Shown one piece after another: positions 7,180-64,000 of a DNA stretch of 64,000 bases. This stretch comes from Octopus vulgaris (Eukaryota): the NCBI GenBank assembly GCA_951406725.2, contig OX597823.1:23870001-23934000 (forward strand). The letters run 5' to 3'. Under the pieces are notes generated by a model, which was not told the origin of the DNA, did not search any database, and saw only the letters and a program-made list of their open reading frames with translations. Made by a program: the position numbers and the translations under genes. Within the stretch, counting starts at the first letter, position 1. The number at the start of each line of letters is the position of its first letter.

Positions 7180-7180
7180 C

Positions 7181-25700: not shown

Positions 25701-28700
25701 ACACAAACAGTAACCAAATGTAGCTATAAAAAGTGGTGACCAACTATCCTGTCCCACTCAATATCTTTTCTTCCAAGTTTATCTCCTCATTCTTTCCCTC
25801 CTTCTAATACATGCAGCAATGATAAACATCTCTGTTTTCAATTACAGAATATGCACAAATAAACTGTGGAACTCCAAAAGATATTGCTAATGCATTGAAG
25901 TCTTATAAAACCTCCTCCTATAAAGCTGAAGTGACCTATACTTGCCCAAAGGGAGAAAAGTTAAAGTCAACATGTGAAAAGGACAACAAATGGACTCCAA
26001 TACCTTCCGCTTGTAAAGGTAATGTAAATAGCTTCTCTCCTGTTGTTTCGGTCTGTCTATTAATATTTGATTTTTGCATTAAATGTTTTTGTTAGCAGAA
26101 TACTGGCTGACTCCATGACAATTTCTGTAGTGTTTTTGGCTGGTGGGAGGAAGAGAAGGAGCTGTCCTCAGACCAGAGATCTCTCCATATGCTTGCAACA
26201 GAGTGAACTCCTTTAATACTAGCCAAGGGCCTAGTAATGCTGTTAAATTGGGTGATTTGAACTGATAGACTAAACAGCATGAATACCCACTGTAAAAGAA
26301 ATACACTTGACATGTAATTGTCCTCCTTCTCCTCCTCCTCATCGTCATCATCATCATCATAACTAATGCTCATTTTGCAAGCTAACCTGGGCTGAACAGT
26401 TTGACAGGTTTCAATGATATACAGATTGCATGAGGCCCAAATGTCACTTCTGGTATGGTTTCTGTTTCTTGTTGCACATCCTAGCACCAACCACTTTACA
26501 GTGTGTACTGGGTGGTGCGTTTTTTCATGAAACTGGCATTAGTGAGGTCAGCAAACAACTTGAAAGACAAAGTAAAAAGAGGAATAGGGCGAAAAGCTTC
26601 TCCGCCATGTTAATCTGTACTGGAGGGAGGAAAAATAGCATTATGCTAGGTGGTGTAGGTAAAAGTATGACAAAGGGACAAGCACAGGTATCTTGCTATA
26701 GAGGAAATACATGACCACCCCAGTTTTGCAAGGGTGGGTGAGGGTAGTTGGAAGGGAGAAAATGATGGTGGTGACATATATCCTGATCATACTTTCTAGG
26801 TACAAGAAGGTGAGTATCAGGAAGAATATAGCGAGGTGGAGAAAAAAGTGTGGATAAATTAATAAAAAGTATGGTGGGAGAGTTAAAAAAACAGTTAGAG
26901 ATTGGGCTATAGGTGGATGGAATGAGTGATGAGAAAGAGTGAAGCTGTGGTTGATGGAGGGGGAGGTAAGATATAGAAGTGGCGCAGGAAGCAGGAGGTG
27001 ACAAGCAGCAGCACAGGAGAAGTGAAGGGCAACAGTATCATATACGTTTTGACATGAGAAAGTAGGAAGATAATGTGCAGGTGTTAGATTGTTGGAAGGT
27101 GGGTGAAGAGTGCGGCAAATATGGAGGTGGCTAATGTGAGTGGGACACCAAAGTTGGTGGGGCCATTGATAGTGAATATGAGAAAATACTGAGAATGATG
27201 ATACATAGGAAAGGTGTTAACCATGATGCATGGCAGACCTTTGATTTAGCTCAGAGTGGAAGGAGAGATTAATGAAAGCACAGAAAAGGAGTAATTGGTG
27301 GAAAGTAGTATGACAGGGATGATTATGAGAGTGAGATAACTGGTTGTGACAAAGTGAGGATGAAAAATGTGCTGATTCTGCATCTCAAATGATTTAAGCT
27401 GCTGAGTAGTGCCATGTACACACTGAAAATAAAGATGAGTATGTTTGCTGCAAACATCTCAGACAAGATTGTCGAGTGGCAGTTCTATGACTAGATTTTT
27501 ATCTTGAAGTGGTAGAACCATTTGGTAGCTTTGCAAAACCAAGTATTTAAGGAAGTTCACCATGGTATTCCCTGACCAAAAGTTTTTCAATTCAAATTTG
27601 TCAGTTAGTTTTCATTGATGTTCAGCGAAAACTGTTAGAATACTAGTGCTCTAACTCTCAATAGATTGCTAGAGTGGGATATCCACCAATTCTATTTATC
27701 CATGTCAGATTTCATCCAGTGTACTTCATCTTTTGTAATCCATAGGATTACATTAGACAATGTGGCCATCCCCTTTACATAAAATGGTGGTGTGTGATTG
27801 AGGGAGAGTTTGTTACTATTTCTATCATAAGGGCCTTCATAGTAACTACCTCATGACAAGTATTGAACTTTAATATTGCAATCTAACAAATCTGACATAG
27901 CTTATCCTCAGTTGCCTGGTTCAACATCACCACCTGGTCCTTCAGCTGGTCATAACAATGGTGATGAACGATACTTGCTCTAATGTTTATATACTCAGTA
28001 CAATATCAAGCGTTCATATTGAACCACAAATTTACTCAAGTTTGATATTTTGCGTTCAGATTGCTGTCAAATGTAATGTTTATTTCTTCACATTTAAAAA
28101 ACATTAAATTAATCATGCATCATCTTGTAGCTTGAAGTTTTCAATGATGTGATTATTTTGTTATAGAATGACATTGTAGGTTAGATATGAAAGGCTGGTT
28201 ATGGCTGATTTAATCATAAAGCAGGTAGAATATTTGGGCTGGATTAAATGCTAAAGGGTTAATCACAAGTGTAGGAAGGTTGGTTGCCTCAGAATTTCAT
28301 GTCATTGTTGTTTCTGTCATGGCTAGCTTATTAAAAAATCTAAATAAACTCATTGAATCAATTATGTATTCATTGTTTAGGGTGATGTATTCACAGAATC
28401 ATTCTAGCGTCAGACAAAATGTGTTGTATTTTTCTAAATCCTATTAATGTGGATTTTCCTCTTCCAGAGCCAATAAAATGTAGGGGCCATTTAAATTTTA
28501 TTGGTCCTTTTAGGGCCAAATTAATTGGCTCCTACCTCAAAATTTTGGTCTTCTCTCTATGTGAGAAATTAATAGTATTATTGTTAGTTTTCATTCTTCT
28601 CTATCTTATTTTGACTCTAGATGTTCAGATCCATTTTGTGAAAGTAAAAAATGCAGCTCTGGATGTAACAGGGAAAACATTATGGAGTAAGAAAAAAGTG

Positions 28701-31700
28701 ACAACAGATGCATGTGCTGAAAAATGTTTTTCTGACAAAACTTGTGCATCATTTGAAATATTAAAAACAAGTGGACTCTGTTACTTATTAAAACAAGCTG
28801 CAACATCCTCCAAAATAAAAACAGACCAAAGCAGAGATTACTACCAACGAGTAAAATGTAATTATTCTTTGTATTTTATTATTGGATTTCTCTTTTCTAT
28901 TTTTTTTCTGATATTTCTGATTCCATTCCTGCTTCATAATATATACGCAACCATCCCTTTAAAGGTATTAAGAGATTTACCAATAAGGGCAGACATAAAC
29001 ACATTGCTGCAAAAAAAAAAAAAGAAAGAAAGCAGTACAAGGAAGTGTAAATACTGTTAGAGTATTCCAATATGGCAAGTGTTTACCTTGAACACTTTTA
29101 ATGCTTATTTTCATTTTCTTTTATCTTCTTTGATGTTCTTTTACATGTTTGAATCATTGAACAGTGGACATGCTGGGACAATGTCTTGAAAGGTTCATTT
29201 GAATAAATCAAATCCAGTACTCATTTTTTAAAAAACCTGGTACTTATTTTATCATTCTGGTTTGCTGGGATGTAAATAAGCTGACACCAGCAGTGACAGT
29301 GGGGTTTAAACACAGATGCACTCACACTTACACACACATGTACACTTGTAAATAAATAGATACATTGATACAGATTTAAGCACATAAATATGTATGTGAA
29401 TATATATATATATACATATATATAGTAAGAGAAGGGATATAATATCCAGACAGATACCAAATTTCTCTCTGTAAAATGTCAAGGCTGGTTCCTTCAGGTG
29501 GTGCATTTTATGGTAAACTTCCTTTAACTCCCATTTCAAGTTATAGTTTATTCCTTGGCTATTTAGAGTGTAAAGTACAATATTGATAAAAAAGAGAATG
29601 AAGAATATGAACATTCAAACTTTATTTATTTCCAGTTAGCTTATTCATAATAATTGTCTGATATGTGTTTCGATTGTACTAATTGGATATTGTTGCACAT
29701 TTATATGCAGTGATTTATGCATTATTAGTATGATCTCTTCAGGATATATAAATATGACATTGTTTGAAGAGTAATTTTCCTCTGTTTTTAGTTTGAATTA
29801 GGCTTGGTAGTAGTTGCTATTATTCGTTAGCTTCTTGTGCTTGTGGTTAGACATCAGTCATTCATTATGGTTTATAGCTTTTGATTTATATATATATATA
29901 TATATATATCCATTTTGCAGGGATGTAAACAAGCTAACACCTGTTGTCCAACATCAGCGTTGGTGGTGGTGGGGATCAAACACAGTCGCACACACCCACA
30001 CTTATACACACATGCTCGCTCACACAGAAGACATGCCTGTATACAACAACAACCGTGATTTCACTTAGCTTGATGTGTTTTCTCAAGCACAGCAACCTGC
30101 CAGGAGTCTTGATCCCCTGTCATCCCCTCTGTGGGTTCCTATATCTGTAGATCCTTTCTCACCTCTTTGTTCCTTCTGCAATTAGAGATCAGTACTTCTT
30201 GATGCAACTTCATTCATACACATTACATGATTGCACCAGCACAGTCTTCTCTCTCTTACACTATATTTGATACCTTGTGTACCCCGTTTTTCTCTCAAAT
30301 CACTTACACTCTGTTGTATATGCACACTGACATTACCCATCCAGTGGAGAATACTGGCTTATTTTCTTTCAAGCCTTTGCATATCCTCAGTAGTTACAGC
30401 CCATGTCACACTGTCAGGTAGCATAGCTGTTCATACACTGGCATCATACACTATATCTTTCACACTGAAAGGGAAGCCCTTTGTTACTAACAGAGAGAGT
30501 AGCTCTCTGAAGTTTGCCCATCCTATTCTTATTCTAGTAGATATATTTTGAGAACTTCCTCCACTACTACTAACTTGGTCATGTAAGTAACAAAAATTGT
30601 CTACTACTTCTAAGGATTCCCCCTGACATTTCAGCGAGTCTGGTTTTTGGTCATTCCTGGTGTTTAATATTCCTGCAAACATACCACATATAAAGACTAC
30701 TTTCTCTGTTAGTCTTCCGGTGATACTGCTGCACCTCTTATGTGTCCAAAGCTTGCACTGAGTACACCTTACGGAGTTTCTCCCAACACCTTTTCCACAT
30801 ATCATCAGCAATTTGTTTTCCTACTTATCAAGACTTTAGTCTTTGCGAAATGAACTCTAGGGCTCTTTAACTCCAGTCTGTGCTTCCATACCTGAAATTT
30901 TTTCTCTAGATCTGGTTGTGATTCAGCAATAAGAACAAGGTTATCAACACAGGAGCTCCCAATGCAGTCAGTCTTAAATTATCATAAATAAGAGGAGGCT
31001 AAGAACTGCTCCCTGGTGGACTCCTACTTGTACACTAAACTTTTTGATATACTCATTGGCAACTCTCACCTTACTGACTACATCCTTGTACATTGTTTAT
31101 ACAGCTCTTACCAACTACTCATCTATCCATAGCTTCTGCATTGCTTACCAAATAGGTTAGTGGAAGACCCTGTCAAAGGTTTTCTCCATCTCTTAAAAAG
31201 CTAGATACTGAGGTTTATATTTGGCCAAGTATTTCTCCTGCTGGGTCTTCTCAAGCATAGCATATCTCCAATGGTCTCTATGAGGTCCAACGTTTGAAGG
31301 TCGTGCTTCACCATCTCATCACAGGTCTTACTGGGTTTACCACTTCCACAGGTTCTCTCCACTGTTAGGGTGTGACACTTCTTCAAACAGCTGTCCTCAT
31401 CCATACACAGCACATGACCATACCAGCACAGCTGTCTCTCTTGCATTCCATGTCTGATGTTTCTTACACTCTCCTATTTCCATGAAGAAGGAAAGATTTG
31501 ATATGAACATTATATGACAATGAGGTAGTTAATGCTTTTGAAACTATTGTCTACATGTAGCCTTTAGTCACTCGCAAAATATTCTCCAGAATGTCATGTT
31601 AGACATCCCTAAGTAACCATGAATATTTTGATACATTTCTGCCTGATATCTTATATCAGATCCACTGTAACCTTGCTTCTTCAGTTTTGGAATACATATC

Positions 31701-34575
31701 ATAGTAATATTCCTGAGCTAAACAATCTGAGAAGTGAAGGAAAGGAAAATCATGTTATCAAACTATGAGTCTATATTTATAAAATCCATCTGTGATATTT
31801 TATGACACTTACATCCAATGTCAAAAGTTGTGTTGACTCCTCATCTCTGATCACCAATTGGAAATAGCAATGGGAATTGCTGTGACTCATAATTTGGATG
31901 TATTGAATTGATTGTTTGAAGAGGAAATTCACCAGGAACACAGCTTTTATGCAGCCTCAGAAATCATTGTGGTTGTTCTGTTTCCAAATTCATATCTGGC
32001 ATAATTACTGCAACTTCTGTGGCTGGACAATTATAAGTTTGGTTACCAGCTGTAGGAATGTATTTGTTATTCTGGAATAAATATTCTGTGCTGTTGTTGA
32101 TGAGCTCATCTTCGAAGCTGACAGAGTTGTTGTTACTGCAACACTATGAACAAAAATGTTGAATAGAATTCATGATGCTCATTTTGGAGTGACAAAGTGC
32201 ATACTCAGAGCTAAAGATGTTATCTTTTGGCAAGGAATTACTGTACAAATTGAAGAATTTGTATCACGATGTTCTGTGTGCAGTGAAAACAGAATGAGTA
32301 ATCCAAAACAACCAACAAAGAGTCATGAAATTCCTGATCAGCCGTGGACCAAAGATGGAGCTGATTTGTTTGTGTACAAGAACAATGACTACCTGGTGGT
32401 GTGGACTATTTCTCAAATACCACAAAATTGTGAAATTGTCTGATCTATCAAGTAAAAAGAGAAGCATAGCAGTGAAATTTGTTAGCATCCCAGATGAGCG
32501 CATGAGAGATAATGGACTGCAGTTTATGAGTGCAGAGTTCCTTAACTTTGGTCTTAAATGGGACTTCAAACACACATCGAGTCTGACATTCCCACAATCA
32601 AACAGACAAGGTGAGCGTACAGTTTAGACAGTAAAATATCTGCTCAAGAAAACGGAAGCTAGTGGCTGAGATGTCTACTTAGCTCTATTTGAGTACAGAA
32701 AAGCACTGGTTGACTGCTCAAATGCTAATGACACAGCGTCTGATACCTTGCTGAAACCTCGGGTACAGGGCCAGAAACAACTACATGAACAGCTGAAAGC
32801 ATGTCAGGACCAGCAAAAGTATACTGCAACAGAGGTAATAGAGAGTTACCTCCCTTGACTCCCGGACAGCAAGTCAGGATTCAAGAATGGAATCCTGGAG
32901 TTGTCAAATTAGCTGATGATGCGCCAAGATCCTACAATATAACGACGTCAAATGGAAGACAGTATCAATGAAATTACAGTCATCTCTGGACAGCTGCTGA
33001 GAATCCAACAGCTCAGCCAAATGGAGAATGTGAAAAGATTATGAACTGTGATACATATGTGTCTGAGACAACAGACACTCTCTGTAATTGAACTACAAGA
33101 TCCAGACAAAATATCAACATGCCAGAATGATATCAAGATTGATATCAAGAACTTTTGAATTTCAGTTTCAACAAGTTGAACTATGTTAATTGCTAGAAAG
33201 CATATTTCATTATTTTTTCCTGTTTGAAGTTAAAGAAGATATATTCATGGACTTAGAAGAAAGTTGCTTTATCAGAATATTAATTGATATATAATTGAGT
33301 TTATTTGAAGCTGATAATTTAATTTCCATTGCCATAGCTTAAATTTTGTGTGTATATTGACTACAATAATACTTCTTACAATGTTTGTAAAGAAGGGAGA
33401 TGTAATGAAAGTCACTTTACATTAAGATGTGCACACAAAGTGTGATGTCATGAGTTTGTGATGTATGACGTAACAGATACACATAGTGATGGCTGTGCCC
33501 TGTGTCATGCCATAGTTTTCAGTCGAGGCCTATGGTTAATTTCCAGAAACCACTGGCTTGACACCCCCATCCTCGCCCTTGTGGCAAATAAATGAAATTA
33601 TTATTATTATTAATCCTCATGAGTTATTGTTGTTGTCATCATCATTATTATTATTTCATAGATATTTTAAAAGTATTAGATGATTATGTAGAAGTACAAG
33701 TAATTGTGATTTTGAATAAAATATGAGAAAGCTATCTCATGCTTTGTTGTTTAAAGGGACAAACAAATCAATCCACGAAATAGATTTTCAGCATAAGACA
33801 CCCTTCTCAGAATTAATGTGAATTCTAGTACATCATAAGACATGCTTCACACTTTATCTCAGAGCTTAGGTTGTTCATACTCCATTTGTATATCTCTCTC
33901 CCCATGGTGTGTTTTGTTGAAGACTGAATGGCCATAGCAACACTTGATACATGGGTTGACCACCTGTTTAGGGGAGTGTTGACCCTACAAAATTACATCA
34001 TTTAAAGGGAGCTGTACCAATGTATTGTAGAAGCACAAGTGTTGTCTGGAGCCTAAGTATTGTGACAAGGTTTCAAATAAGTCTGAAGATGTTCAACTCA
34101 TATGCATTCTGATTTGCATGTCATTTTGTCAATCAATTATTTGTTGATAATAAATTATCCATTTACAAACTTATATCCTGCTTGCTTTACAATATTTGAG
34201 TGTGGGTGTATTTGGGGAAATGAATGAGCATAAAATGTATCTCTTGGTTTCTTTTTCTTTTACCAGCTGACAAGCCCTTGAAGCTTAAGAAAGTTAATTT
34301 ACCAAAGACGGTTATTTTAAAACAGCTTAAAGATAAGTCCTTAAATGAGTGCAATGAAGCTTGTCAACAATACGAAGGATGTAATTCTTATGAGTACAAT
34401 GACCAGGATAAACTGTGTGGTCTAAGCAATGTGACACAATTGACTAGTGAACTTAAACCCAACACTGGAAATTGGGATGTTTATATCATTAATCCAGGTC
34501 AGTAGAGTGTTTCTATTTTATATATGTGTGCTTACATCTGTGTGTATTTACATTTATGCATCTGTAGGAAGATAT

Positions 34576-34606
<31 letters not shown>

Positions 34607-45361: not shown

Positions 45362-45420
<59 letters not shown>

Positions 45421-47411: not shown

Positions 47412-47462
<51 letters not shown>

Positions 47463-48149
47463 TAAATAAATTAGAGACAAAACCACTATTATGCAAATCA
47501 AACAAAGAAAGACTTAAGCCAATACATAAAATAATTTATATAATTAAATTTAATTAAAATAACCACTACGATCGTTTCGTGTCAGCACTTCTATGAGACA
47601 TTCTTCAGGTGGTTTCAAAACCTAAAATATAATCAATATTTTTAAGATATAAATAATCTATATAATCTAAATAAAAATTTACTTATAATAAACTCTATTA
47701 TTAAATATGATTATATCGAAATCGACTATAATGTTAAATATTAACTTTAATTTGGATTTTCTACCTTATAAATTAAAGTTAATATTTAACATTATAGTCG
47801 ATTTCGATATAATCATATTTAATAATAGAGTTTATTATAAGTAAATTTTTATTTAGATTATATAGATTATTTATATCTTAAAAATATTGATTATAATTTA
47901 GGTTTTGAAACCACCTGAAGAATGTCTCATAGAAGTGCTGACACGAAACGATCGTAGTGGTTATTTTAATTAAATTTAATTATATAAATTATTTTATGTA
48001 TTGGCTTAAGTCTTTCTTTGTTTGATTTGCATAATAGTGGTTTTGTCTCTAATTTAATATAATATAATATTTTACTATAAAATTGGATTCAATCCTAAAT
48101 CTGATTTTTCCCTGTAAATTTGGATTTATTCCCTATATATTATATTTAT

Positions 48150-48188
<39 letters not shown>

Positions 48189-49290: not shown

Positions 49291-49328
<38 letters not shown>

Positions 49329-52300: not shown

Positions 52301-53154
52301 TGAAATTTTGAATAAATTTTAGAAAGCCATCCAACTCAGTATTTTTCCTGGTGGCAATTTATTATAAAAACAGAATCCATTTTCAAACCAGTTTTTAGCA
52401 TAAGACACCTTTCTCAAAATTCATGTGAATTCCGGTATATCACGAGACATAATTGAAATTTCACCTTCATGATTCAGTTGCAGATAATGCATTTGTACAT
52501 CCCTCTTCTGACAGTGTGTTTTTATGTTTGATTTAATGGCCACAACAACAATTGACTCATTCATCAACCATCTGCTGAATAGTATTCCATCCCTATAAAA
52601 ATACAACATTAGAAGCGGGAATATATAAATGTGTTATGTGCAACTTAAGTTTTGAAACACAGAACAAATGACTTTCAGGAGGTGCTACATTTCACATGAA
52701 TCCTGACTAAGTTGTCATTTTGTGTATCAATTATTTGTTTATAATAGATTATCTATTTAAAACATATTATGCACCAGATGTTATATAATATTCAATGTGT
52801 GAGTTTAAGAATTTATTTCTTGTTTTTTTTTTCTCTAGCAAAAGAAGACATTGTTACATTTAAAAAAACTCTTATAAGAGGGGAAGATAGTTTTGAACGA
52901 CTGACTGATGTGAGCTTAATGGAGTGTGCTAAAGCTTGTAATCTAAATCCAAGTTGTAATTCTTATGAGTACAATGAAAAATTTAAGCTCTGTGATCGAA
53001 GTAATGTGACTCACTTGACTCATGACCTTCAACCCAGCAGAGGGAATTGGGATGTTTACATCAGAAACCCAGGTCAGTGGTGTTTGTGTTCTATTTTTAT
53101 GTGCGTGCTTTCATGTGAGTGCGTTTGTATGTTTGCCATATATATGTGTATGTA

Positions 53155-53200
<46 letters not shown>

Positions 53201-53479
53201 GCACGTAAAAAGCACCCAATCCACTCACGGAGTGGTTGGCGTTAGGAAGGGCATCCAGCCGTAGAAACTCTGCCAGATTCAGACTGGAGCCTGGAGCGGC
53301 CCCTGGCTTCCCAGACCCGGTCGAACCGTCCAACCCGTGCTAGCGCGGAAAGCGGACGTTAAACGATGATGATGATGATGATATATATCAATCTGTTTTA
53401 TCTACTATCTATTTATCTATTCATCTACCTGTCTATATATATGTATATACACACACTTATACATGTATATATGTGTATA

Positions 53480-53512
<33 letters not shown>

Positions 53513-54027
53513 TATAATAATAATAACAACATACAGAAAAGAAAATTGCACTACTAGGCACTGCACACATCCTACACAGAACACTTTCCATACAATAACC
53601 ATCAGAGCATCACAACAAATCACAGCACATACCCAAGGCACACAGAGCTGCGCTCGGTAGTGAAGTGAAAGCACGCTATAAAAAAAATAAAACTACTGAA
53701 TAATAATAATAATAATAATAGGGAATATGATTCCAAACTTACAGGGAAAAATTCAATTTAGTAATACTAAATCAAATTTCACAATATATAATATATGTAT
53801 ATAAATTAGAGAAGAACCACTATGTAGCAATTGAACAATGATATAATTAAATCATACCATATAGAAAAAAATTAAATATACTATAAAACATATACCTATA
53901 ATTAAATAAAGTACAAAATAATAAATAAATAGTATATAATTGGTAAAAAGACTACATGTGTTTCATTGCTATATTTTCAAACTGATAGCAGTAAAATCAA
54001 TTCAATTTAACTATAGTCAATTTAAAT

Positions 54028-54086
<59 letters not shown>

Positions 54087-57000
54087 TGGATCAAAATAGT
54101 ATGATTCAAATTTGTTGGAGCTCTTGAGTTTCAAGTGTAATTTTCAGATTCAAAGTGGCTGACAACTAGCATCATGCTTGAAATTCATGAGTACCAACAA
54201 ATTTGAATCAAACCGTTCTGATCCATACATGTAACTCCCAATAAGTTGGTTGAGTGCCCTTGTCATTTGTCCTTTCACTTGTGTGTGTGTGTATGTATAT
54301 ATGTATGTATATAAGTGGTGGAGTGGGATATGGCCTAGTCACCCGTATAGGTAATCAGGTTGTTCACAAGGGAGTTATACCCATTGACTGGTGTAGCAGC
54401 ATTATAGTCAACTGCTACAAAGGCATGGGCCATGCCCAGGACAAAAATAGTTACAGAGACATCAAATTGCTGGACCAGGGGGTGAAAATTACAAATACAA
54501 TCTGTTACCAGAACAGTAAAACTATACAAGACTTTGTGACATTCCTTTTGTTATCAACATTTCAAAGATGGAGCTTTGTATTTTTGTTAGAAACCAGCAC
54601 CTTCTTCAGTGGAAGAATTTAAATGATAAAACAGAAGAGAAAAATGCATTCATACATACATACATACATACATACATACATACATACATACATTTTATAA
54701 GGTACGTTTTTATATTCCTGTGCAAATTTCTTCAATTTGATTCACTCATTATTTTTTATTTATTGTATTGTTATTTTTGCCCTATTTTCACCTCCCTCTA
54801 AACATGCAAGGACCATTTGTGTCAATTTCTCTTTTCATTTCCAGATTTTGTATTAATTGACTGTGGAACTCCAAGAGAAGTTTCTGGTTCATTGAAGTCC
54901 TATAATTCCACCAACTATAAATCTGAAGCCACTTATACTTGCCCAAACGGAGAACAAGTGAAGTCAGTGTGTGAAAAGGACAATAAGTGGACTTCAGTAC
55001 CATTTTCTTGTAAAGGTAACATAAAATGTTTCTCTCTTGTTGCCTTTGTCTGTGTAATTTTGTTTTACTTTTGTGTTACATGTCTTTGTCGGAGGATGAG
55101 TGGCTAGCTTAGGTAGATTTGTGGCTGGTAGGTGGAAGCTTACAGATCACAGATGTCCCCAAATACTTGCAAATGGGTGGGATGCATTAATTCTGGTCAA
55201 GGACCAGGTAATGGTATTAAACTGGGTGATGGATGCTGTCTACAAACCGAGAGCTGGAAGTGTAGAAACTAATTGTCACCAGCAAGCTTCAACACAGATT
55301 CCATCCACAAAATTTCATCCACAAGACTTAGCTGAGAAGTAAATTTTTCACTACACAGCAAAAACTCCATGCAAAACCACAATGTTATCTCCACTGTTAT
55401 GCCTCATGTCATCTTGGCCATTTCTCACTTAATTTCTAACTTGACTTACTCACCCATACTTTGTGTCATCAATCAAAACCCTTCACATTATAATACCTTG
55501 TGTCCATCTTTACTAAAACATGGCAATACTCTGAAACAGACTTCTGATGCTCTTATCTTCTAATCCACCACCCTTAATCATGATAATATTAATAATAATA
55601 ATGAGTCCTGATTTACACACAAAGATAGCAAGTTATGGTGGGAGTTGTTTCGTCAATACCATCAACCATATTATTTGACTGGTACGTTATGTTATTATGT
55701 TATATCACACAAGTATGAAAAGTGAACGGATAACCAAAAGAACCTGAGTACATACCAGAAAGCATTTCTTCCAGTTTTCCAGTTAGTATACACATAAACA
55801 ATGGAATAAAAAAAAAAAGAAAAAGATGGGGATGATTTTGTGATAAACATTAATGTAGCAGGACTTTGGTCTAGGACCAACTGAAGAACCCTATCTCTGA
55901 AAATCACCCTGAATTCCGTGCATAAGTTTGCTCTGCAGTTATTGTTCTCTAACTTACATGTTTATGCCCTGTGGCCCTTTTTGCTACTTTCACCTTACTT
56001 TCAATAATCATCTCTGAGGACAGTATCTTCCTTTCTATTCTCACTTTCTTTGCAAGGGAAACTTCAAAAATACAAATGAGGGATTGGCTAAACAGGAAAG
56101 TCACTCTCATCTGATCTATCAACCATATCCACCTTGTGATCTCTTTTGCTATCGCCACCAAACAGGAAGACTGACTTCTTTGATTGGTTGAAGGAATGTG
56201 TGAAGCAATCATCATGATAGGCTTGTCTCATAGCCAGATCTATCCCATACTGAAGACCATCTGTTTGACATAACTGCAAGTTAACAGTATATGGAAAATG
56301 AAAGATTTCATGCAAAATTATTTATTTTTACCACAAGTATCTGTGACGGGCTTGTCTGATGCACTTCCATGCCTGTAGATTTTATCTTGGACCAGTAGAG
56401 TCTTTTTGCAGCACTACTGAGCCAAAGAATTAAGAATGTTATCCATAGAAAACCCTGAACAAAAGCCTTGAAAAAAAATAGCCACTTCAGTTTCATTGCT
56501 ACCCAGAGCAACCCTGAGAATATCAATACTCTATCCTACAAATCCTCTTGCTCAGGTTTGACATAGCATACTATATCTGAAATCTTTAAGATTAAGTGAG
56601 ATAGTGTAGCCCAACTCTATCCTACAAATCCTCTTGCTCAGGTTTGAGATAGCATACTATATCTGAAATCTTTAAGATTAAGTGAGATAGTGTAGCCCAT
56701 TCTTTTTAATACTTTTGAGTATGATTGAAGGAAATTTTGCTTATCAGTCTTAATATGTTGTGCATAGGTGTGGCTGTGTAAGCTTGCTTCCCAACCACAT
56801 AGTTCTAGGTTCAGTCCCACCGTGTGGCACCTTGGACAAGTGTCTTGGTCTATAGCCTCAGGCCAACCAAAGCTTTGTGAGTGGATTTGGTAGACAAAAC
56901 AGAAGGAAGACCATCATATACAGGGGGTAATGGGTAAATTGTCACTATTTTGTACTTTTAATTTCTTGCATGTACTTTGTTTATTTTTGATTTTGTTGAC

Positions 57001-60000
57001 TATACAGTATAGTAGGGTCAGTTGGACACCATCTGTGAGAAAAACAGCACCATGATGAAATTCTCTCTGCCAGAAATTGAAAATTACTTGCTGTATTGCT
57101 TGGCATTCACACCGGAAGCTGTGATACGAACATTTCAAAGTGTTTGGGTGTCTATCTCAGGACAGTGCAAAGGATTTGGTAAGAGTTGAATGAGTCTGAT
57201 AGTGATTACAAAAGTATGGTAACTTGGAAAACTCACTCTGATCATTCTAATAAGAAAAGAACCCCAGAATTTGTTGGTGAGATCCAGGCCATGATTGACA
57301 ACAATCCCTCCAATTTAATCAGGTCCATTGCCAGGGACATGGGAGTGTGTGAGTTTCTTGTCAGGCAGGTAGTGCATGAAGACATTTGGTATTCCTCATA
57401 CAAGATGAGAAAAGGACAATTTTTATCTCCAGCTATTAAGGACAAAGAGGAAAGACCATGCTGCAAAGCTTTTGAACTAACTTAAGCATCCCCTCTGACC
57501 AAACATGCTTTCATTTTCCTGAGACAAGAAACAATTCTACCAAGATCAGATGGTCAACACACAGAACAACTGTCCCCAAAACATGTAATGACAGTGATAA
57601 AAATCAAACATCCAGTCAATACCATGGTGTTTGGAATGATCACTAATGATGGCGACGTTATGCCTCCATTCATCTTCCCACATGGCCTCAGACTCAACAC
57701 AGAGGCCTACAGCAAGTGCCTGGAGGAGGTAGTGCTGCTCTGGGTCAAAAGGGTGACTGCTGAAAAACCCTATGTCTGGCAACAAAACTCTTCACCATAC
57801 CACACAAGCAGGAGAACCCAATTATGGCTTTCAGACAATTTCTGCAAACACAACACCCCTAATATCTGGCCACATAACCCCCCCCCCCCCACTGAAATCC
57901 CCTTAATTATTATGTGTGGGGTACAGTTTAGTGAGACACCAACAAAACTCCTTGTAACACCAAATATGAACTGTAGGCAAGGATTATGGCTGCGTTCACC
58001 AACTTAAACAAGGGGATTCCACAGTCATCTGGAGGCTGTGGCTGAAGCCAATGGCGATTTTATTGACTACATTTACTCTTTAGTATTTGAAGATATCTTT
58101 ATGCAATTTTGGTAAATATATCTGTTAAAATGAGATGTCAGTATTATTTTCATTTTTGCATAATTTAGACAACAGTTTATGCATCGCACCCTGTATGTGT
58201 GTGTGTATCTTTGTCTGCATTTGTCCTCCACCACTGCTTGACAACTGGTGTTGGTGTGTTTATATCCTTGTAACTTAATGTTCAGTGAAAAAGACCATTA
58301 AAATAAGTACCAAGCTTTAAAAAAAATAAGTACTGAGGTCAATTCATTTGACTAAAAATCCTTCATGGTGATACTCATGCATGGTTGTTGTTTAATGACT
58401 GAAACAAGTAAAAGATCAAAGATAAGAAACAATGTTGGACATCCACAAAGGGGTATCCGCAGTGGCTGGTCTATGGTAAAATTTGAAATTAATATTGGAG
58501 TCTAACACATCTAAGTTATCCTCCAGTAAATGCTGTTATCTGGTTCACCACAACCATCTGGTCCTTCAGATAATCATGGACAACAGTTGATTCAATGTTA
58601 ATATATTTATTACAATAATAAACACTTTACATACTCAAGCTGGGCATGGTCTATGTTAATGTCGCAGTCTTAGAAGGGAGGGTAAGTTGAGAATCCTATG
58701 ACACAGCTTTATTTTTTTCTGTCATAACTAGTTTACTGAAAAATAAAAGTACCACCTTGTAATGTACTATATATTCATTGTTTAGACACATGGTCAAACA
58801 TAATTAGAGAAATCAATGAAGTTGTCTGATATTCATGTCTTTCTCAAGAGCTCCAACTCGCTATATATTTTCTGCAAACAACTTGCACATGCTACCCATT
58901 GAAAGCTCCACATACTGGAAGCTAACAAGTGTATGGGATCGTAAGAGAGAATGCACGCTGTTTCAGGCCCTACCTCTTAACGGCATCAATGCGCACCAGC
59001 TCATTCACTGATATGAGGTCCTGCTTGCTAGATCAACTGGTTATCAAATAAAGCTCAATATTCTTCTAGCCATCGCTCATCGTTTTTAACCAAATCCTGT
59101 GGCTACCCTTTTCCACTGTAGTTTAGATATCGGTCGTGGTTGTATTTACTTTACAATGAGTTAGGCCTAACGATAACAACAGTCACCTCACACTGTGTCC
59201 AACAAATCCTCTACATCCAACTTCGATTGGAAAATGCTCTGCTTTCCAGCCTACGTCTTCACATTCCTTTAGGAGGTTTACATAACAGTCAATCTTTCAA
59301 GCCCAAGTGGCGTCCATATTATCTACATGAGAAACTGCTAACTCGACTAGATTCACAACTTTCTTTCTTTCAGACCACATTAAAATGTCTGTTTTTTTTT
59401 GTTTTGTTTTTTGTAATTGGGATGGGAAAGAGTCCCTGGCACCCTAGTAACAACCGTTCCACTTTTCATCGCTCACAGGAAGTTTCCTTTTCTTCTTGAA
59501 ATGGATCTGCTGTCCTGGGGGCACAAAGGTAATGAAATCACTAGTTGATACTTTCAATGGTCTTTTTCACTATTGTTGAGATCAATTTTGTTCTTTATAG
59601 CATTGAAGATAACCTCAAGGACCAGGTTGTATCTTTATGTATGCCTATTCAATGCTAGTGAACTGTTAGAAAGAATATGTTTCAATGTTCTGATCTTTCT
59701 ACATTTGCATATATCATTCTGTGAGACGTTCCACCTTATTAGATTTGCAAGTGATAGCAAGACATCATAAGATGAATGAATCAGAAAACCTAACCAAGGT
59801 GTGATCCATCTCCATATCTTATCCCAACTTATTTTTCTCTCAACATGTTTCTCCCATCTCATCATCTGTCCTTGTTGAGTGCATTGGATCAAATGAAGCT
59901 CTTTTCTCTCTGCTTCCCTTGTTTTGACACTGTTGCTAACAACAGATCTGTATTTGTTCCACATCTTACTTGAAAATGGTCTGAACCAATCTGTGCCAAA

Positions 60001-60505
60001 GCCAAGTCTCTTCCTATGAATTTGCATTGCACCTACCATATCTCAGTGTCTAAGATAAGACACAATATCATCAGTCTTTGCCTCTGCTTTCCACGTCCTT
60101 GCTGTTTTCACATCTGGTGGATTACACCTGATTTCGATGTCCTTCAGCTCTCTCAGCATCATCACCATTTGCACCTTCCCTAGTTTATAAATTTCTACTA
60201 CATTTCCACTATTGACACCAGAGGCAACGAGCCTCTTTTATAATAAAGAGCTGCACTGTTCAGTATCTGAGGTAGGCCTAATCACTTTCTAATGAACACA
60301 TTACATTTTTGTTCAATGATTTGAACTCATGACAATGCTACCTCATATATTAAAAGTGGCCACGAAAGTCACAGATACATGCCAATCTGTAAGTACCAAA
60401 CTTTATATTTATCTGGTAACTTTCCAGACATTTGTACATTACTGCATATGCTTTATATGCACTTTTGACAAGTTGTAGTGCACCTGAGCACTATATACAA
60501 TAATT

Positions 60506-60566
<61 letters not shown>

Positions 60567-63500
60567 CATTATGGTTTGAGTCCAGAGATGATTTGCCATG
60601 TGTTTTATGATCAGACAATTCACACTTCTCTGGCCTCTTCTTACAAGCCTTTCCCTGATGTATCTTCAAGTCACTTTTGGTTACAAAGGTCCTACAGCAC
60701 AGCTTACATCCAAAGTTGTTTGCACTTAATTCACTGTTCAAAGGAATAGCTGTATTCATGTCCAAGGTCATTCCCGTGTTAACTAAGTTTCATTGATTCT
60801 CGACTCTCCACTCTTGGTCAATCACGGGGCTGTTATTCTCATTGGTATCTGTTACAACAAGTTAAAAATGCAAGGATTGTAAGTCTGCAGCCTACACCAG
60901 TCTTTCCTGGTGTCAATAGACTTTCCCACTGTCAGCTTGTCTTTCCGAGCAGTCCTCTTGTCTTTCAGGATGCCTAACCGTCTTTCCAGTCTGTCAGTGA
61001 TTACCTACAATGTCTTAGATGTTCTTCAAACAACTTGCACATGCAAGTGCTACCAGTTGCAAACTCCACATATCAGAAGCCAGCAAGTGTATGGGGTCAT
61101 CAGGAGAGAATTTGTGCCATTTCAGGGCCTGCCTCTCTATAGCATCAATGTGCACTGGCTCCCCCCAGTGATATGAGGCCCTGCTTGCTAGATCAACTGA
61201 TTATCAAATAAAGCTCAATATTCTTCTAGCCATCCCTTTTTACCAAATTAATCACTAGGGGAAAATACACATGTCAACTTCCTGCATGAAGAAAATATTA
61301 AAAATCAGCTGTTGACTGAACAGCAATATCATATTTGATTAAAATTTCACCCTTTGTGGGTGCTGAAATCATTATGTCAATGACTTATTTTGGTCATGAG
61401 ATTCGCAAGTGACAACCTTGTAAAAAACAATCACTTTTTCTTCATCTCACTAAAAGTATAATTTTGATTGAGAATTTCTTAGCTTGCTACATTAAGTTGT
61501 GAGTGTCTATATTTACTATGTATTTTTATTTCTTCACTAGATAATGAAAGTGAAGTTATTTTTGTTTTATAAGGCAAAACTTTGCAAGATCAGTTAATTG
61601 ATGTGTTACAGTCCTTGTCATGACTAAGTATAGTTAGTGATATCCATTTACATAGTGGTTTGAAATCACAACAGAATATATTTCACCTTTCATACTTCTG
61701 TGGTTGATGAAATGAGCATTAGTCATATACCGAGGTTGATATATTGTCATGTACCTTCACTGCAGAGTGTGTATCTTTAATATTGGTTACTTCAACAATC
61801 ATTATATTTTTGTATTCTTGTTGTGACGAAGGGTGATAGATCGACAAAGTCATTTGAGCATCAGTCAAAATGTGTTGTGGAATGTGTTCTGGCTATTTGA
61901 CTTTTGAGCATAAATCCTGCCGATGCTGAATTTGCTCTTCTTGGGTCAATAAAATGTAATGCTTGTCTGGTGTAGAGGCCAACCAAATAGACTTATTCCT
62001 TCCTCTAAATCTTGGCCTTGTTTCTCTATTTCAATGTATTGTTGTTGTTATTGGTATATTTCATTGCCTTAAATTTTATTTTTTAATTCTAGATTCTCAG
62101 ATCCATTTTGTGAAAATAAAAGATGCAGCTCTGGATGAAACAGGGAAAACATTGTGGAGTAAGAAAAAAGTAACACCAGATGCATGTGCTGAAAAATGTT
62201 TTTCTGACAAAACTTGTTTATCATTTGAAATAACTAAAGGAAGTGGACTCTGTTACTTATCAAAGCAAACTGCAGCTTCCTCCAAGAAAATAAAAACAGA
62301 CAAAAGCAGAGATTACTACCAACGAGTAAAATGTAATTATTGTTTTTGTACTTTATTATTGGATTTTTCTGAATTTGTGATTCCATTTGTACTTCATAGT
62401 ATATAGACAACTATTTGTGTGAAGACATTGACAGGTTAAGAATGTTATCCATAGAAAACCCTGAACAAAAACCTTGAAAAAAAATAGCCACTTCAGTTTC
62501 ATTGCTACCCAGAGCAACCCTGAGAATATCAATACACTATCCTACAAATCCTCTTGCTCAGGTCAGGTTTGACATAGCATACTATATCTGAAATCTTTAA
62601 GATTAAGTGAGATAGTGTAGCCCATTCTTTTTAATACTTTTGAGTATTATTGAAGGAAAACTTAATCCATCCAGAAAATTATGTTTTAGCAAAAGACTAT
62701 CTTCTCAGAATAAATAAGAATTCTGGTACATCATGAGACATACATGAATGCTCACCTGAATATTTTGGTTGTACATAGTGCTTTTGTACATGCATCTTTC
62801 GATAACATGCATTTATTTAATACTAGTCCAACCCATGCTAGCATGGAAAGCGGACGTTAAATGATGATGATGATGATGATGATGCATGGCCATTACCACA
62901 ACACATGATACATTGATTAGCCATCTGTTTAATGGGGTATCAACCTTAATGTTGCCAGTATGTTTGGAGATGTTCTACCTCTCTCTCATGAATTCTTAAA
63001 AGAGTGTCAGTTTGTGAATCAACTATTTCTTTCTTTTACTTTTTAATTGCTCTATAAGACTTTGCAGCCATGCTGGGGCACTGCCAAAAAGAATTTTGGT
63101 CAAATGAGTTAACCCCAGTAGTTGTTTTTTTTTTTTAAGCCTGGCACTTATTCTAACAGTTTCTTTTGCCGAACTGCTAATTTATGGTGACATAAGCACA
63201 CCAACATAAGTTGTCAAGCAGTGATAGGGGATACACACATACACATGCACAATGAGCTTCTTTCAGTTTTTGTATGCCACTCATAAGGATTTGGTTGGCC
63301 CAAAGCTATAGTAGAAGACACTTACCCAAAGTGTCACGCAGCAGAACAGAACCTAGAACCATGAGGTTGAGGAGCAAACTTCTTACCACTCAGTCACATC
63401 TATGCTTGTTTATAATGAATTTTTCATTTGCAAAATTATGTTTCAAATGCTTTAAAATATTTAATACATGCTAAGATGTGTTAGAATGTAGTTGTTTTCT

Positions 63501-64000
63501 TTTTTCTGTATTTTCAGCTGACAAGCCTCTTCAAATTAAGAGAGTTAGTATATTAGAGAAGGAAACTTTTGGAAGGCTTATGAATGTGAACTTAAAGACG
63601 TGTAATGAAGCTTGCTTTCAATATCCGGATTGTAATTCTTATGAGTACAATGAGAAAGATAAATTATGTGATCTAAGCAGAGTGACTCGGTTGACTGATC
63701 AATTTAAACCCAACTATGGAGTTTGGGATTCATACACAATCACCCCAGGTCAGTAGAGCATTTCCGTTTAATTTCTTGAGTGTATATATGTCACCCCCCC
63801 CCCCCCACACACATACATACATATCTGTGTGCCAATATCTTCTGATTGTTTCACTCAGTATCTTTTATTCTAAATCTGTCATTATCTCTTCATTCTCACC
63901 CTCTTCCTAATATGTACACATCATTGATATCAATTTCTCTTACTCACTTTAGTTTACATGAAAATTGATTGTGGACCACCGAAAGATATTGCTGACACAT
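8928..64000 (+). CDS. Partial multi-exon gene encoding an extracellular (PAN-PAN-Sushi)n repeat protein, join(8928..9167,11571..11804,19501..19671,25848..26018,28621..28857,34267..34497,41188..41358,44788..45024,52839..53072,54845..55015,62093..62332,63518..63748,63953..>64000)
   Basis: 13 exons with polypyrimidine-AG acceptors; 12 complete with GT donors, all phase 1-1. Lengths are 240/234/171/171/237/231/171/237/234/171/240/231 nt plus 48 nt partial, 2616 nt in all, with no stop codon. Cys spacing of PAN and CCP domains is conserved and N-glycosylation sequons (NAT, NVT, NST, NKT) are present. Both gene ends lie outside the window. Confidence 0.88.
11571..11804 (+). CDS. Exon B1, PAN/Apple domain type B
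   Basis: ttcttccAG|cc...cct g|GTcagt; TLKECNEKCYRYHGCNSYQYSEENKLCVLSNVT...DVYITNP. Confidence 0.9.
12690..14850 (-). mobile_element. Two decayed RTE LINE fragments in tandem
   Basis: Minus-strand frames DNFYYLGDQIS..., NFRELLSLLVTK, WKQNLESKGLKINL.KTKV, PFLFIII.QAITE. Confidence 0.75.
14855..16180 (+). mobile_element. Decayed RTE LINE 3' half with 3' UTR
   Basis: YADDL at about 15040, Cys-rich insert, RW.GHV-like motif and the shared gtaaaaagcacc.../aggaa.gcatccag tail. Confidence 0.8.
16180..17140. mobile_element. CR1/Jockey-group LINE fragments (+ 16180-16780; - 16820-17140)
   Basis: VRDLGI, ILRTFRT, DYCSQLW, YIWKILEGIVPNFGI on +; LQNDLNAI..NNMQFNAK on -. Confidence 0.75.
18640..19190 (+). 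mobile_element. Decayed non-LTR element with RLE endonuclease (R4/Dong-like) 3' end
   Basis: HVISSC...HDVVAKTIYN, YWWNIPIKT..KPD...IIEVSCP.D.NI...EK..Y, IIILALG: the CCHC/RHD/PD..E/K-Y layout of RLE elements. Confidence 0.7.
19501..19671 (+). CDS. Exon C1, Sushi/CCP domain
   Basis: atttccAG|tt...aat g|GTaacg; CGSPKDVAGA...VIYTCSDGE...CEKDNKWTPVASVC, with the 4-Cys and Trp pattern of CCP modules. Confidence 0.9.
20715..22470 (-). mobile_element. RTE LINE 3' half with 3' UTR and (GAT)n tail
   Basis: Minus-strand LSPLLFIIVLQ, ELLCANDL, MLHSSETWAM..RRLERNEASM.HWMC, GRHRKTCD; same family as 1-1620. Confidence 0.85.
22710..23210 (+). mobile_element. RTE-type 3' UTR/SINE-like repeat with internal aaaaagcaccatcc subrepeats
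   Basis: Matches the tails at 1300-1620 and 53195-53380. Confidence 0.7.
23400..24950 (-). mobile_element. Highly decayed LINE RT relic
   Basis: Minus strand LIFVDDI at about 24150-24172 and FTDF..K at about 24310-24330. Confidence 0.45.
25064..25189. repeat. Minisatellite, 3 x 42 bp
   Basis: Unit cagtgttcgtaggattgttacttaactccacgacactcatta starts at 25064, 25106 and 25148. Confidence 0.85.
25848..26018 (+). CDS. Exon C2, Sushi/CCP domain (extra copy not preceded by A/B exons)
   Basis: attacAG|aa...aaa g|GTaatg; INCGTPKDIANALKSY...VTYTCPKGE...CEKDNKWTPIPSAC; 171 nt, open frame. Confidence 0.87.
28621..28857 (+). CDS. Exon A2, PAN/Apple domain type A
   Basis: actctAG|at...aaa t|GTaatt; ACAEKCFSDKTCASFEILKTSGLCYL...DYYQRVK. 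Confidence 0.9.
30060..31470 (-). mobile_element. RTE LINE fragments
   Basis: ICGKGVGRNSVRCTQCKLWTHKRCS...VDNFCYL...WANFRELLSLL; QERQLCWYGHVLCM...GKPSKT. Confidence 0.8.
32080..33520 (+). mobile_element. Ty3/Gypsy integrase relic with PPT and start of 3' LTR
   Basis: HDAHFG...C..C zinc-binding motif, PWTK.GADLF, RDNGLQF and PQSN.QGER rve motifs; PPT aaagaagggaga (33389-33400) followed by TGTAA at 33401. Confidence 0.82.
34267..34497 (+). CDS. Exon B2, PAN/Apple domain type B
   Basis: ttaccAG|ct...cca g|GTcagt; SLNECNEACQQYEGCNSYEYNDQDKLCGLSNVT...WDVYIINP. Confidence 0.9.
35227..35320 (-). ncRNA. Type I hammerhead ribozyme motif (stem II decayed)
   Basis: Minus strand: cagctatct-CTGATGA-gtgc...atga-GAAAC-tgattg-GTA-agaccagctg. 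Confidence 0.55.
35891..35982 (+). ncRNA. Type I hammerhead ribozyme motif (GAAA mutated to TAAA)
   Basis: cagctacct-CTGATGA-gcat...atgc-TAAAC-caattg-GTA-agatcagc, with palindromic stem III. Confidence 0.5.
36380..37450 (-). mobile_element. Penelope-like element relic with GIY-YIG endonuclease
   Basis: NIIHVLKCRGCDEDYIGQTSLTLRDRLMVHRQQI...KES.LIKKYKPQL (37045-37332). Confidence 0.75.
37580..38420 (+). mobile_element. Tc1/mariner transposase relic
   Basis: LVFTDEKK, VWAAVTATG, LQQD.A.SH and W.SR.PDLN.LDFSV motifs. Confidence 0.8.
38540..39600 (+). mobile_element. Second Tc1/mariner transposase relic
   Basis: WS.ETHFKLNG, PFFFEGTVTG.AYL.ML, APPHY and SP.LTPVDFLLWG motifs, frameshifted. Confidence 0.7.
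39640..40545 (+). mobile_element. RTE LINE fragment
   Basis: YADEL, Cys-rich insert, HSSETW; same family as 1-1620. Confidence 0.75.
40555..40880 (+). mobile_element. Tc1/mariner 3' fragment
   Basis: NIW..NSPDLNPLAYYV motif. Confidence 0.6.
41188..41358 (+). CDS. Exon C3, Sushi/CCP domain
   Basis: tttccAG|tt...aaa g|GTaatg; DCGPPKDITGA...VIYTCPEGE...CAEDDKWTPVASSC. Confidence 0.9.
42200..42810 (+). mobile_element. RTE LINE fragment
   Basis: VDNFCYLGD, WRKFIELLPLL and WFGHVV motifs. Confidence 0.7.
44788..45024 (+). CDS. Exon A3, PAN/Apple domain type A
   Basis: attccAG|tc...aaa t|GTaatt; VCAEKCLYNSKCLAFEITKESGNCYLS...DYYQRVK. Confidence 0.9.
45326..45420. repeat. Compound (GGT)n(TAG)n microsatellite
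   Basis: Read directly. Confidence 0.9.
47561..47614 (-). ncRNA. Mirror copy of the minimal type I hammerhead ribozyme
   Basis: Reverse complement of 47909-47962 in the left palindrome arm. Confidence 0.72.
47909..47962 (+). ncRNA. Minimal type I hammerhead ribozyme (Penelope-type)
   Basis: aaccac-CTGAAGA-atgtc[tcatagaagtgct]gacac-GAAAC-gatc-GTA-gtggtt: 6-bp stem I, conserved core, palindromic stem III, GUA cleavage triplet (cut after 47956); the first stem II pair is A-C instead of G-C. Confidence 0.75.
48270..49170 (+). mobile_element. CR1/Jockey-group LINE 3' fragment
   Basis: MQFNASKFQAL...DLGIEMSN...ILRTFQTRD...LDYCSQLW...LEAVQR...SYWDRLKEL (ORF 48361-48777). Confidence 0.85.
50192..51068 (+). 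mobile_element. Internally deleted mariner element with TIRs
   Basis: Imperfect TIRs tgagtcggtatcaagaagttcc / gaaccttttgataccagctca; NVKFCVKLGKSATE and PYSPDLAP motifs. Confidence 0.85.
52839..53072 (+). CDS. Exon B3, PAN/Apple domain type B
   Basis: ttctctAG|ca...cca g|GTcagt; SLMECAKACNLNPSCNSYEYNEKFKLCDRSNVT...WDVYIRNP. Confidence 0.9.
53195..53382 (+). mobile_element. Young SINE/RTE-tail repeat between (TG)n and (GAT)n
   Basis: CpG-intact copy of gagtggttggcgttaggaagggcatccagc...aaagcggacgttaaacgatgatgat. Confidence 0.8.
54028..54085. repeat. (GATA)n microsatellite
   Basis: Read directly. Confidence 0.9.
54085..54227. mobile_element. Small foldback/MITE-like element
   Basis: About 55-bp imperfect inverted arms (tggatcaaaatagtatgattcaaatttgttgg / ccaacaaatttgaatcaaaccgttctgatcca) flanked by TA. 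Confidence 0.6.
54845..55015 (+). CDS. Exon C4, Sushi/CCP domain
   Basis: tttccAG|at...aaa g|GTaaca; DCGTPREVSGS...ATYTCPNGE...CEKDNKWTSVPFSC. Confidence 0.9.
55880..56734 (-). mobile_element. Penelope-like RT relic
   Basis: Minus strand QTDGLQYG...AYHDDCF (RT motifs B and C) at about 56200-56275. Confidence 0.5.
56528..56699. repeat. 86-bp tandem duplication
   Basis: 56528-56613 and 56614-56699 differ by one base. Confidence 0.92.
56765..56915 (+). mobile_element. tRNA-derived SINE 5' part
   Basis: A/B-box-like tgtggctgtgt...ggttcagtccc followed by ggcaccttggacaagtgtctt; a minus-strand copy lies at about 63030-63400. Confidence 0.65.
56921..58193 (+). mobile_element. Near full-length decayed Tc1/mariner (maT/DD37D-like) transposon
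   Basis: TA-CAGGG...CCCTG-TA ends; MVFGMITNDG, YVWQQNSSPYHTS and IWPHN motifs in ORFs 57186-58007. Confidence 0.85.
58870..61245 (-). mobile_element. Decayed HERO/R2-group non-LTR element flanked by about 200-bp direct repeats
   Basis: N-terminal zinc finger CKLCCRTFVTKSDLKIHQGKAC; RKISW..IW...LGFLI.S.YD.L.SLANL.RW...CKC...TLKHILSN...ALNR; direct repeats at about 58876-59075 and 61028-61233. Confidence 0.72.
60507..60571. repeat. (ATT)n microsatellite
   Basis: Read directly. Confidence 0.9.
62093..62332 (+). CDS. Exon A4, PAN/Apple domain type A
   Basis: aattctAG|at...aaa t|GTaatt; ACAEKCFSDKTCLSFEITKGSGLCYLS...DYYQRVK; close paralogue of A2. Confidence 0.9.
62436..62659 (+). repeat. Near-identical copy of 56430-56734 (with one 86-bp unit)
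   Basis: ttaagaatgttatccatagaaaaccctgaac...ttgagta.tattgaaggaaa; a few substitutions and a tcagg duplication. Confidence 0.9.
63518..63748 (+). CDS. Exon B4, PAN/Apple domain type B
   Basis: ttttcAG|ct...cca g|GTcagt; NLKTCNEACFQYPDCNSYEYNEKDKLCDLS...WDSYTITP. Confidence 0.9.
63953..64000 (+). CDS. Exon C5 (5' part), Sushi/CCP domain, cut by window end
   Basis: cactttAG|tt tac atg aaa att gat tgt gga cca ccg aaa gat att = YMKIDCGPPKDI; the upstream intron matches that of C3. Confidence 0.85.

Follow-up and report, generated by a model that had tools for sequence, protein, structure and literature searches.

Exons at the locus

The window, i.e. the whole stretch of 64,000 nucleotides analysed here, covers positions 23,870,001-23,934,000 of contig OX597823.1 of Octopus vulgaris (G000:C10, hereafter C10); 2.8 Gb of genome were searched. 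Over its entire length (1-64000, plus strand) it is a slice, units 31-34, of an exon array that is predicted to form a single gene (C10:23,362,495-25,003,050). Three types of exons are present, all on the plus strand and all with phase 1-1: According to Pfam, A and B exons encode PAN domains and C exons sushi (CCP) domains. The first unit comprises the PAN-A exon A1 (8928-9167; A31 in array numbering), the PAN-B exon B1 (11571-11804; B31) and two sushi exons, C1 (19501-19671; C40) and the second one of this ABCC unit (25848-26018; C41). It is followed by A2 (28621-28857; A32), whose model has a PAN fold with a pLDDT of 93, B2 (34267-34497; B32) and C2 (41188-41358; C42), and then by A3 (44788-45024; A33), B3 (52839-53072; B33) and C3 (54845-55015; C43). 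The last unit consists of A4 (62093-62332; A34), B4 (63518-63748; B34) and the start of C4 (63953-64000; C44), which extends 123 bases beyond the window end. A4 is 98% identical at the DNA level to A22, located 226 kb upstream. All four window exons scanned with the PAN_1 profile (PF00024) match it with 36-40 bits (curated cut-off 21.4), among them A2 (E 1.4e-9) and B2 (E 1.3e-9). Exon C2 scores 25.2 bits with the Sushi profile (PF00084; E 2.1e-5), above the cut-off of 20.7.

The window also carries repeats. Positions 5036-5630 and 7181-7777 form a direct repeat of 597 bp with 98.3% identity that flanks ~1.5 kb of CpG-rich DNA. This intronic pair (5036-7777) resembles a small LTR-type element inserted recently. 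In the A2-B2 intron (~31500-33400), a degenerate coding remnant resembling that of an LTR retrotransposon was read by eye. The C3-A4 and A4-B4 introns have a repeat in common (56430-56734 and 62436-62659), of which ~190-300 bp are 94-96% identical, with an 86-bp tandem duplication.

The array and its predicted giant gene

Genome searches, which score the best candidates only, returned matches to A (107), B (106) and C (134) that lie on a single strand of C10 from 23.27 to 24.98 Mb. Their order is ABC or ABCC, i.e. the exons are interleaved by type; 45% of the array DNA was read. Among the 347 matches, 346 are intact, stop-free exons of phase 1-1 with AG/GT ends and a length that is a multiple of three; the boundaries of C63 and B43 were adjusted manually, and a truncated A fragment was left out. 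This fragment (C10:24,195,918) lies 1.7 kb ahead of an intact A exon and is the sole relic in the array. Exon B43 (C10:24,093,506) is short (201 nt) and divergent, and its O. bimaculoides orthologue is 82-88% identical, making it a conserved odd unit. Four cysteines and a tryptophan are invariant in 134/134 sushi exons. Four cysteines, as needed for the two conserved disulfides of the PAN fold, are found in 106/106 A domains and at least four in 105/105 B domains, and eight columns are invariant across the 106 PAN-A domains.

Ahead of the first unit lie an exon for a signal peptide and a second exon of 30 nt, both of which recur as paralogous copies ahead of the second unit. The splice context of the 30-nt exon is identical in both genes, and the signal-exon motif has two matches genome-wide (≤3 mismatches), one ahead of each gene. 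When the signal exon was used as a DNA query, it returned itself alone and missed the known paralogue; this search is insensitive and was set aside. After the last B exon, a GON domain is encoded by four exons, followed by a stop codon and AATAAA. The region contains two GON copies only, one after the first and one after the last unit. Between the array ends, the searches made detected neither another signal-exon motif nor another GON exon, and the largest intron has 19 kb. The paired signal exons and paired GON domains thus indicate that a small gene (SP-A-B-C-GON) is followed by a single giant frame.

The giant frame is composed of SP, 105 A (PAN-A), 105 B (PAN-B), 133 C (sushi) and GON. Its conceptual CDS has 349 exons, 73,065 nt and 24,354 aa without internal stops, spans 1,640,556 bp and is bounded by AG and GT at 348/348 splice sites. 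The predicted protein has ~2.74 MDa and a pI of 8.9 (computed without the 10-codon exon), contains 272 N-x-S/T sites and is predicted to be secreted via its signal peptide. With a probability of nearly 0.6, judged from the sequence, the intact 349-exon array is a single gene that encodes a secreted, beads-on-a-string chain of 24,354 aa, likely a multivalent binder or cross-linker in a secretion. Since all repeat exons have phase 1-1, skipping keeps the frame, and a full-length product need not exist. The unread introns (55% of the DNA) may hold other exon types or internal polyadenylation sites. Among the listed matches of contigs aligned to window positions 44500-64000, which are dominated by repeats, no spliced joint was found, and one contig includes an intron, which speaks neither for nor against expression.

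The next gene downstream begins at C10 ~25,043,720 (L013:1220-1810) with a hydrophobic signal-like N-terminus and a Ser/Pro-rich region. Neither this gene start nor the ORF L016:7586-8170 has a Pfam match. The exon searches gave four weak matches on other contigs; away from the array, weak PAN matches and a separate GON-bearing locus, the latter on C1, are located at C13:19.92-19.98 Mb, C13:76.17 Mb, C18:43.14 Mb and C1:49.33 Mb.

Relatives and public gene models

The neighbour gene directly upstream of the array encodes 465 aa in the order SP-PAN-PAN-sushi-GON and is the orthologue of GON-Abd-1 (UniRef R4G2C1, Abdopus aculeatus, 465 aa). GON-Abd-1 aligns to it from the signal peptide through GON, which supports the exon plan of the neighbour. 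Orthologues of GON-Abd-1 are LOC106874924 and LOC115215708. The array follows the same family plan, with a signal exon, a short exon 2, PAN-A, PAN-B, sushi and a C-terminal GON, and its protein has GON-Abd-1 and GON-Sep-2 (R4FJA6) as nearest named relatives. Giant gene and GON-Abd-1 share even the short second exon and the four-exon GON, but differ in the number of units (105 versus one) and in length (24,354 versus 465 aa). The GON domains of the giant and its neighbour paralogue are 58% identical. The putative giant is a paralogue of this 465-aa neighbour that has been enlarged by internal amplification. In 2013, Ruder et al. reportedly obtained GON-Abd-1 and GON-Sep-2 from cDNA of the posterior salivary (venom) gland. 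The available part of PMC9501996 cites this work for coleoid venom evolution only.

A similar order, PAN followed by GON, is found in molluscan PAN/GON proteins (ESM Atlas cluster: GON 95%, PAN_1 27%, 324 aa, Mollusca). ADAMTS9/20 have the GON domain in common with the array, whose exons read so far contain neither a metalloprotease nor a thrombospondin domain. Likewise, the array homologue models yielded strong Pfam matches to PAN, Sushi and GON only, and none to metalloprotease or thrombospondin domains. 'ADAMTS-like' labels of fragments are therefore based on GON alone.

In public gene models, the locus is divided among several genes and a number of A exons are skipped. The O. vulgaris models are fragments of 4,470, 857 and 4,283 aa (4,470 aa being the longest seen), and models reach up to 2,643 aa in O. 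sinensis and up to 1,865 aa in O. bimaculoides. None of the array models inspected begins with a signal exon, and only the last one contains GON. The named O. vulgaris models are identical to array exons and those of O. sinensis 98-100% identical; models of O. sinensis and O. bimaculoides run colinear with the array. For O. bimaculoides, identity amounts to 82-84% in a set of 54 colinear exons chosen by hand from four models, which leaves out P0003, P0007, P0011 and ambiguous repeat-tract ends. Out of 56 homologue PAN domains, picked by regex and including two from a model lacking a species name, 50 are nearest to a domain of the O. vulgaris genome and six to another homologue domain. O. vulgaris and O. 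bimaculoides separated 34 My ago, as given in the available text of PMC10700109. The domain comparison means that the units predate this split and have mostly been kept distinct. Twenty short proteins (P0037, P0039, P0063, P0071, P0077 and others) match single array exons with 55-77% identity, and those looked up are Logan records; they suggest that similar arrays may be present in other octopods. An Argonauta protein carries four PAN domains in the order A-B-A-B.

Constitutive chain or selective splicing

The giant would most likely be one constitutively spliced secreted chain, basic, rich in glycosylation sites and, as estimated from domain sizes, roughly 1 micrometre long. PAN domains bind glycans or proteins. 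Therefore, 210 lysine-rich PAN variants on one chain would give high avidity and broad specificity. From what is known of the family, the chain would bind glycans or proteins multivalently in a saliva- or mucus-type secretion, and broad specificity would be expected rather than a single specific receptor surface.

Alternatively, the locus could be a cassette library with one promoter and one GON end, from which Dscam-like or variable-length splicing would place a few A-B-C units on each mRNA and generate many GON-Abd-1-like proteins. This is unlikely, although it has several points in its favour. All 343 repeat exons have phase 1-1 and are interchangeable, the small neighbour shows that a one-unit product is viable, and the units stay diverse and position-specific between species. 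A diversity function would also account for the sites above 1 described below. However, the exons are interleaved A-B-C-A-B-C, whereas in Dscam-type arrays the alternative exons are clustered by type and one of them is used per mRNA. Furthermore, 346 of 347 copies are intact and their order has been conserved for ~34 My, which is easier to understand if every exon is constitutive.

Array history and two paralogous pairs

Between-unit identity peaks at lags of 4, 8 and 12 units. In young tracts, the divergence of exons versus flanks varies patchily, a pattern consistent with conversion and unequal crossing-over. The phase-1 A-B-C cassette of the neighbour would have been amplified in tandem by unequal crossing-over into four-unit higher-order repeats, and patchy conversion centred on exons would reshuffle the copies. 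Purifying selection would preserve the reading frame, the cysteines and a small number of core residues. In loops and linkers, change would proceed at a roughly neutral rate, and modestly faster at a minority of sites.

In a preliminary description of the window, replacement-biased divergence between A2 and A4 and between B2 and B4 had been taken to suggest diversifying selection. The underlying counts were reproduced. A2 and A4 differ at 12 amino-acid-changing codons (78 aligned) and by one codon indel; the three silent codons are valid with the gap placed further 3' by eye, and BLOSUM gap placement gives five. B2 and B4 share 41 of 76 residues and differ at 35 amino-acid-changing and 9 silent codons. 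Within the quoted N-terminal stretch 17 of 20 residues differ, and the core CNSYEYN..DKLC is identical. The flanks are alignable as described, with 80% identity between 28530-28954 and 61997-62414 and 71% between 34244-34521 and 63492-63772 (both spans include the exons).

As evidence of selection, the replacement bias did not hold. NG86 omega is 0.68-0.90 for A2/A4 and 0.57-0.89 for B2/B4 with kappa between 1 and 3 and not significant (Fisher P 0.44-1.0 and 0.08-0.75, respectively), and maximum likelihood yields dS/dN values of 0.098/0.101 and 0.561/0.374. Nonsynonymous sites outnumber synonymous ones by ~3:1, so that a ratio of 12:3 is the neutral expectation. Pairwise replacement bias was therefore rejected as a sign of selection, omega being ~0.6-1.0 in both pairs. 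A2 and A4 occupy different positions in the four-unit repeat. Their exon dS amounts to 0.10 compared with a flank divergence of 0.36 and 0.20; exons that are far closer than their flanks point to gene conversion.

Selection across the array

The preliminary description had compared the domains to immune or reproductive recognition proteins. That the array encodes an immune or gamete-recognition protein with a ligand-contact face under strong diversifying selection is distinctly improbable, although part of the array-wide evidence speaks for it. Alignments of 106 A, 105 B (without B43) and 134 C exons, each with one small-gene exon among them, were used. One-ratio omega for A/B/C is 0.76/0.77/0.70 with GY-F3x4 and 0.95/0.95/0.77 with the better-fitting MG-F3x4. 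Scaled nucleotide trees were employed because the codon branch lengths from IQ-TREE were the same as those of the input tree. In the codeml-type site test that had been suggested, M8 is superior to M8a: Three fits assign an omega of 1.7-2.4 to 20-35% of sites and yield 2dL values of 132 and 193 for A and 76 for B, as a recognition protein would predict.

These values were calibrated by simulations in which no site exceeds the neutral rate; each class received 24 of them, run on one, two or four segment trees. With a constant-dS grid test, the nulls reach 2dL values of up to 144/196/212 (A/B/C) compared with 272/139/178 for the real data. Since they exceed the real B and C values without any positive selection, this test is trustworthy only for A, and constant-dS site tests, which are anti-conservative here, were rejected as evidence. 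When dS is allowed to vary, the real values of 80.5/35.1/41.0 are above all 24 nulls per class (maxima 33.2/24.2/20.7), with nulls that omit context-dependent mutation and synonymous constraint. After addition of GTR and multi-nucleotide changes, the statistic is 75.6, 26.7 and 41.9, and 18, 13 and 7 sites have a posterior >0.9. Sites with omega >1 thus survive synonymous-rate variation, multi-nucleotide hits and mosaic-tree nulls among the paralogues. Of the proposed diversifying selection, an array-wide site class above 1 stands in this calibrated test, whereas the quoted pairs give no sign of it. The odds that a minority of sites is truly under positive selection are about even.

Pooled comparisons point the other way. 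Pairs of units defined by position at lag 4 have dN 0.09-0.11, dS 0.115-0.138 and a flanking intron divergence of 0.12-0.26, where pairs overlap and misalignment may inflate the intron values. Position-defined pairs replaced a comparison of cherry pairs, in which pairs chosen on exon similarity and conditioned four-fold sites introduce bias. In 6/6 pooled sets, dN is below intron divergence, a point against strong diversifying selection. As dS is also below intron divergence, dS itself may be depressed.

Comparisons between species fall on both sides. In O. sinensis, 9/2,973 residues of 43 mid-array exons differ, corresponding to an omega of ~0.1-0.2 if a neutral divergence of 0.7-1.2% is assumed; this low number argues against a recognition protein. 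Model P0010 from a young tract, which is outside this count, is 92-99% identical and changes faster. In O. bimaculoides, the domains of the single-copy neighbour diverge nearly as much as those of the array (86% versus 83% identity, P 0.22), again unfavourable to strong selection on the array. On the other hand, the GON domain of the giant diverges faster than that of the neighbour (32/221 versus 15/220 differences, P 0.013), and sites that are fast among paralogues are also fastest between species, both as expected of a recognition protein. Orthologue divergence rises through all five bins of paralogue rate (0.02, 0.09, 0.18, 0.25, 0.29), bins that are not independent of it because O. vulgaris exons enter both. 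Extending as it does into the fastest bin, this rise agrees with ongoing positive selection, provided that neutral divergence is ~0.09. A rate of 2.4e-9, published in the available part of PMC7656900, corresponds over 34 My to a neutral divergence of ~0.16, and the fastest sites would then be merely neutral. In the literature searched, no nuclear dS value was found for the species pair.

Structure and placement of variable sites

The A-domain model built from the 106-row alignment (pLDDT 93) displays a PAN fold with a helix on an antiparallel sheet; the single-sequence fold of P0003 has a pLDDT of 45. Foldseek TM-scores are 0.75-0.81 to the N domains of plasminogen and HGF (0.81 for plasminogen) and 0.64 to SML-2. 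With the plasminogen/HGF N domains and apicomplexan microneme apple lectins, the array PAN domains have a common fold and the four-cysteine pattern, at 21-26% identity. The candidate sites of PAN-A are enriched in coil (15/18 versus 40/79 overall, P 0.003) and distributed among the N-terminal linker and a number of distinct loops. In B domains, the N-terminal 28 columns have a mean beta of 1.18 and alpha of 0.98 compared with 0.89 and 1.11 in the other columns. This stretch is variable and only slightly above neutral. The conserved scaffold carrying variable residues was thus found as proposed; by secondary structure, the fast PAN-A sites are scattered across loops and linker rather than placed on a recognisable ligand face. 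No test run pointed to immune or reproductive recognition, and among named proteins GON-Abd-1 and GON-Sep-2 are the closest.

That the array consists of several separate genes, as annotated publicly, is very doubtful. Distinct locus models in three species and 55% unseen intron DNA would allow it. However, a start with a signal exon is lacking in every array model inspected, GON is confined to the last one, and in the searches made neither an extra signal-exon motif nor a GON exon interrupts the array, in which no intron exceeds 19 kb. An unexpressed array in neutral decay, which the mean omega (0.7-1.0; near 1 for A and B under MG94) might suggest, can be dismissed because no stop or frameshift is present in 346 exons, where hundreds would be expected (~125-160 nonsense events per exon class without selection, computed on the trees), and because eight columns are invariant in 106 A domains and both order and sequence are conserved across species.

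Comparison with known systems and implications

The abalone egg protein VERL is a giant extracellular protein with tandem repeat exons and conversion between the repeats. Array and VERL are both tandem-exon giants with inter-repeat conversion, built from PAN/sushi and ZP-N domains, respectively. In contrast to the within-species homogenisation of the VERL type, the repeats of the array are mostly position-specific orthologues across species (50/56). Drosophila Dumpy has ~23,000 aa. Titin comprises ~40,000 aa according to the available text of 10.1101/2023.11.21.568195. With these two, the predicted giant shares the form of a megadalton modular chain from hundreds of exons, though its domains are unrelated to theirs. 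The giant has a predicted signal peptide and neither a membrane nor a ZP anchor after GON.

GON is not mentioned in the available parts of PMC9068888, PMC7656900, PMC9501996 and 10.64898/2026.04.09.716377. The literature searched, which misses subscription journals and supplements, contained no report of a 105-fold internal expansion to 24,354 aa. The coleoid/molluscan domain plan is known, and the 105-fold internal expansion is apparently the new part. The host gene, rather than selection, is the real point of interest; the inference of selection is partly supported and weaker than proposed. The most far-reaching version, a single secreted protein of 2.7 MDa from 349 exons over 1.64 Mb that derives from an amplified salivary module, carries 210 adaptively diversified PAN domains and is fragmented in databases, is put forward tentatively and with somewhat less than an even chance. 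If true, it would be one of the largest extracellular animal proteins.

The array can serve as a test system for conversion and selection in domain arrays, in which constant-dS site tests give large false signals. Transcribed end to end, it would encode a secreted protein of a size comparable to Dumpy and titin, which is cut up by the annotation of three octopus genomes. With selective splicing, it would constitute a library of 105 cassettes. Under either reading, it would represent a cephalopod tandem expansion within one gene, not of genes.
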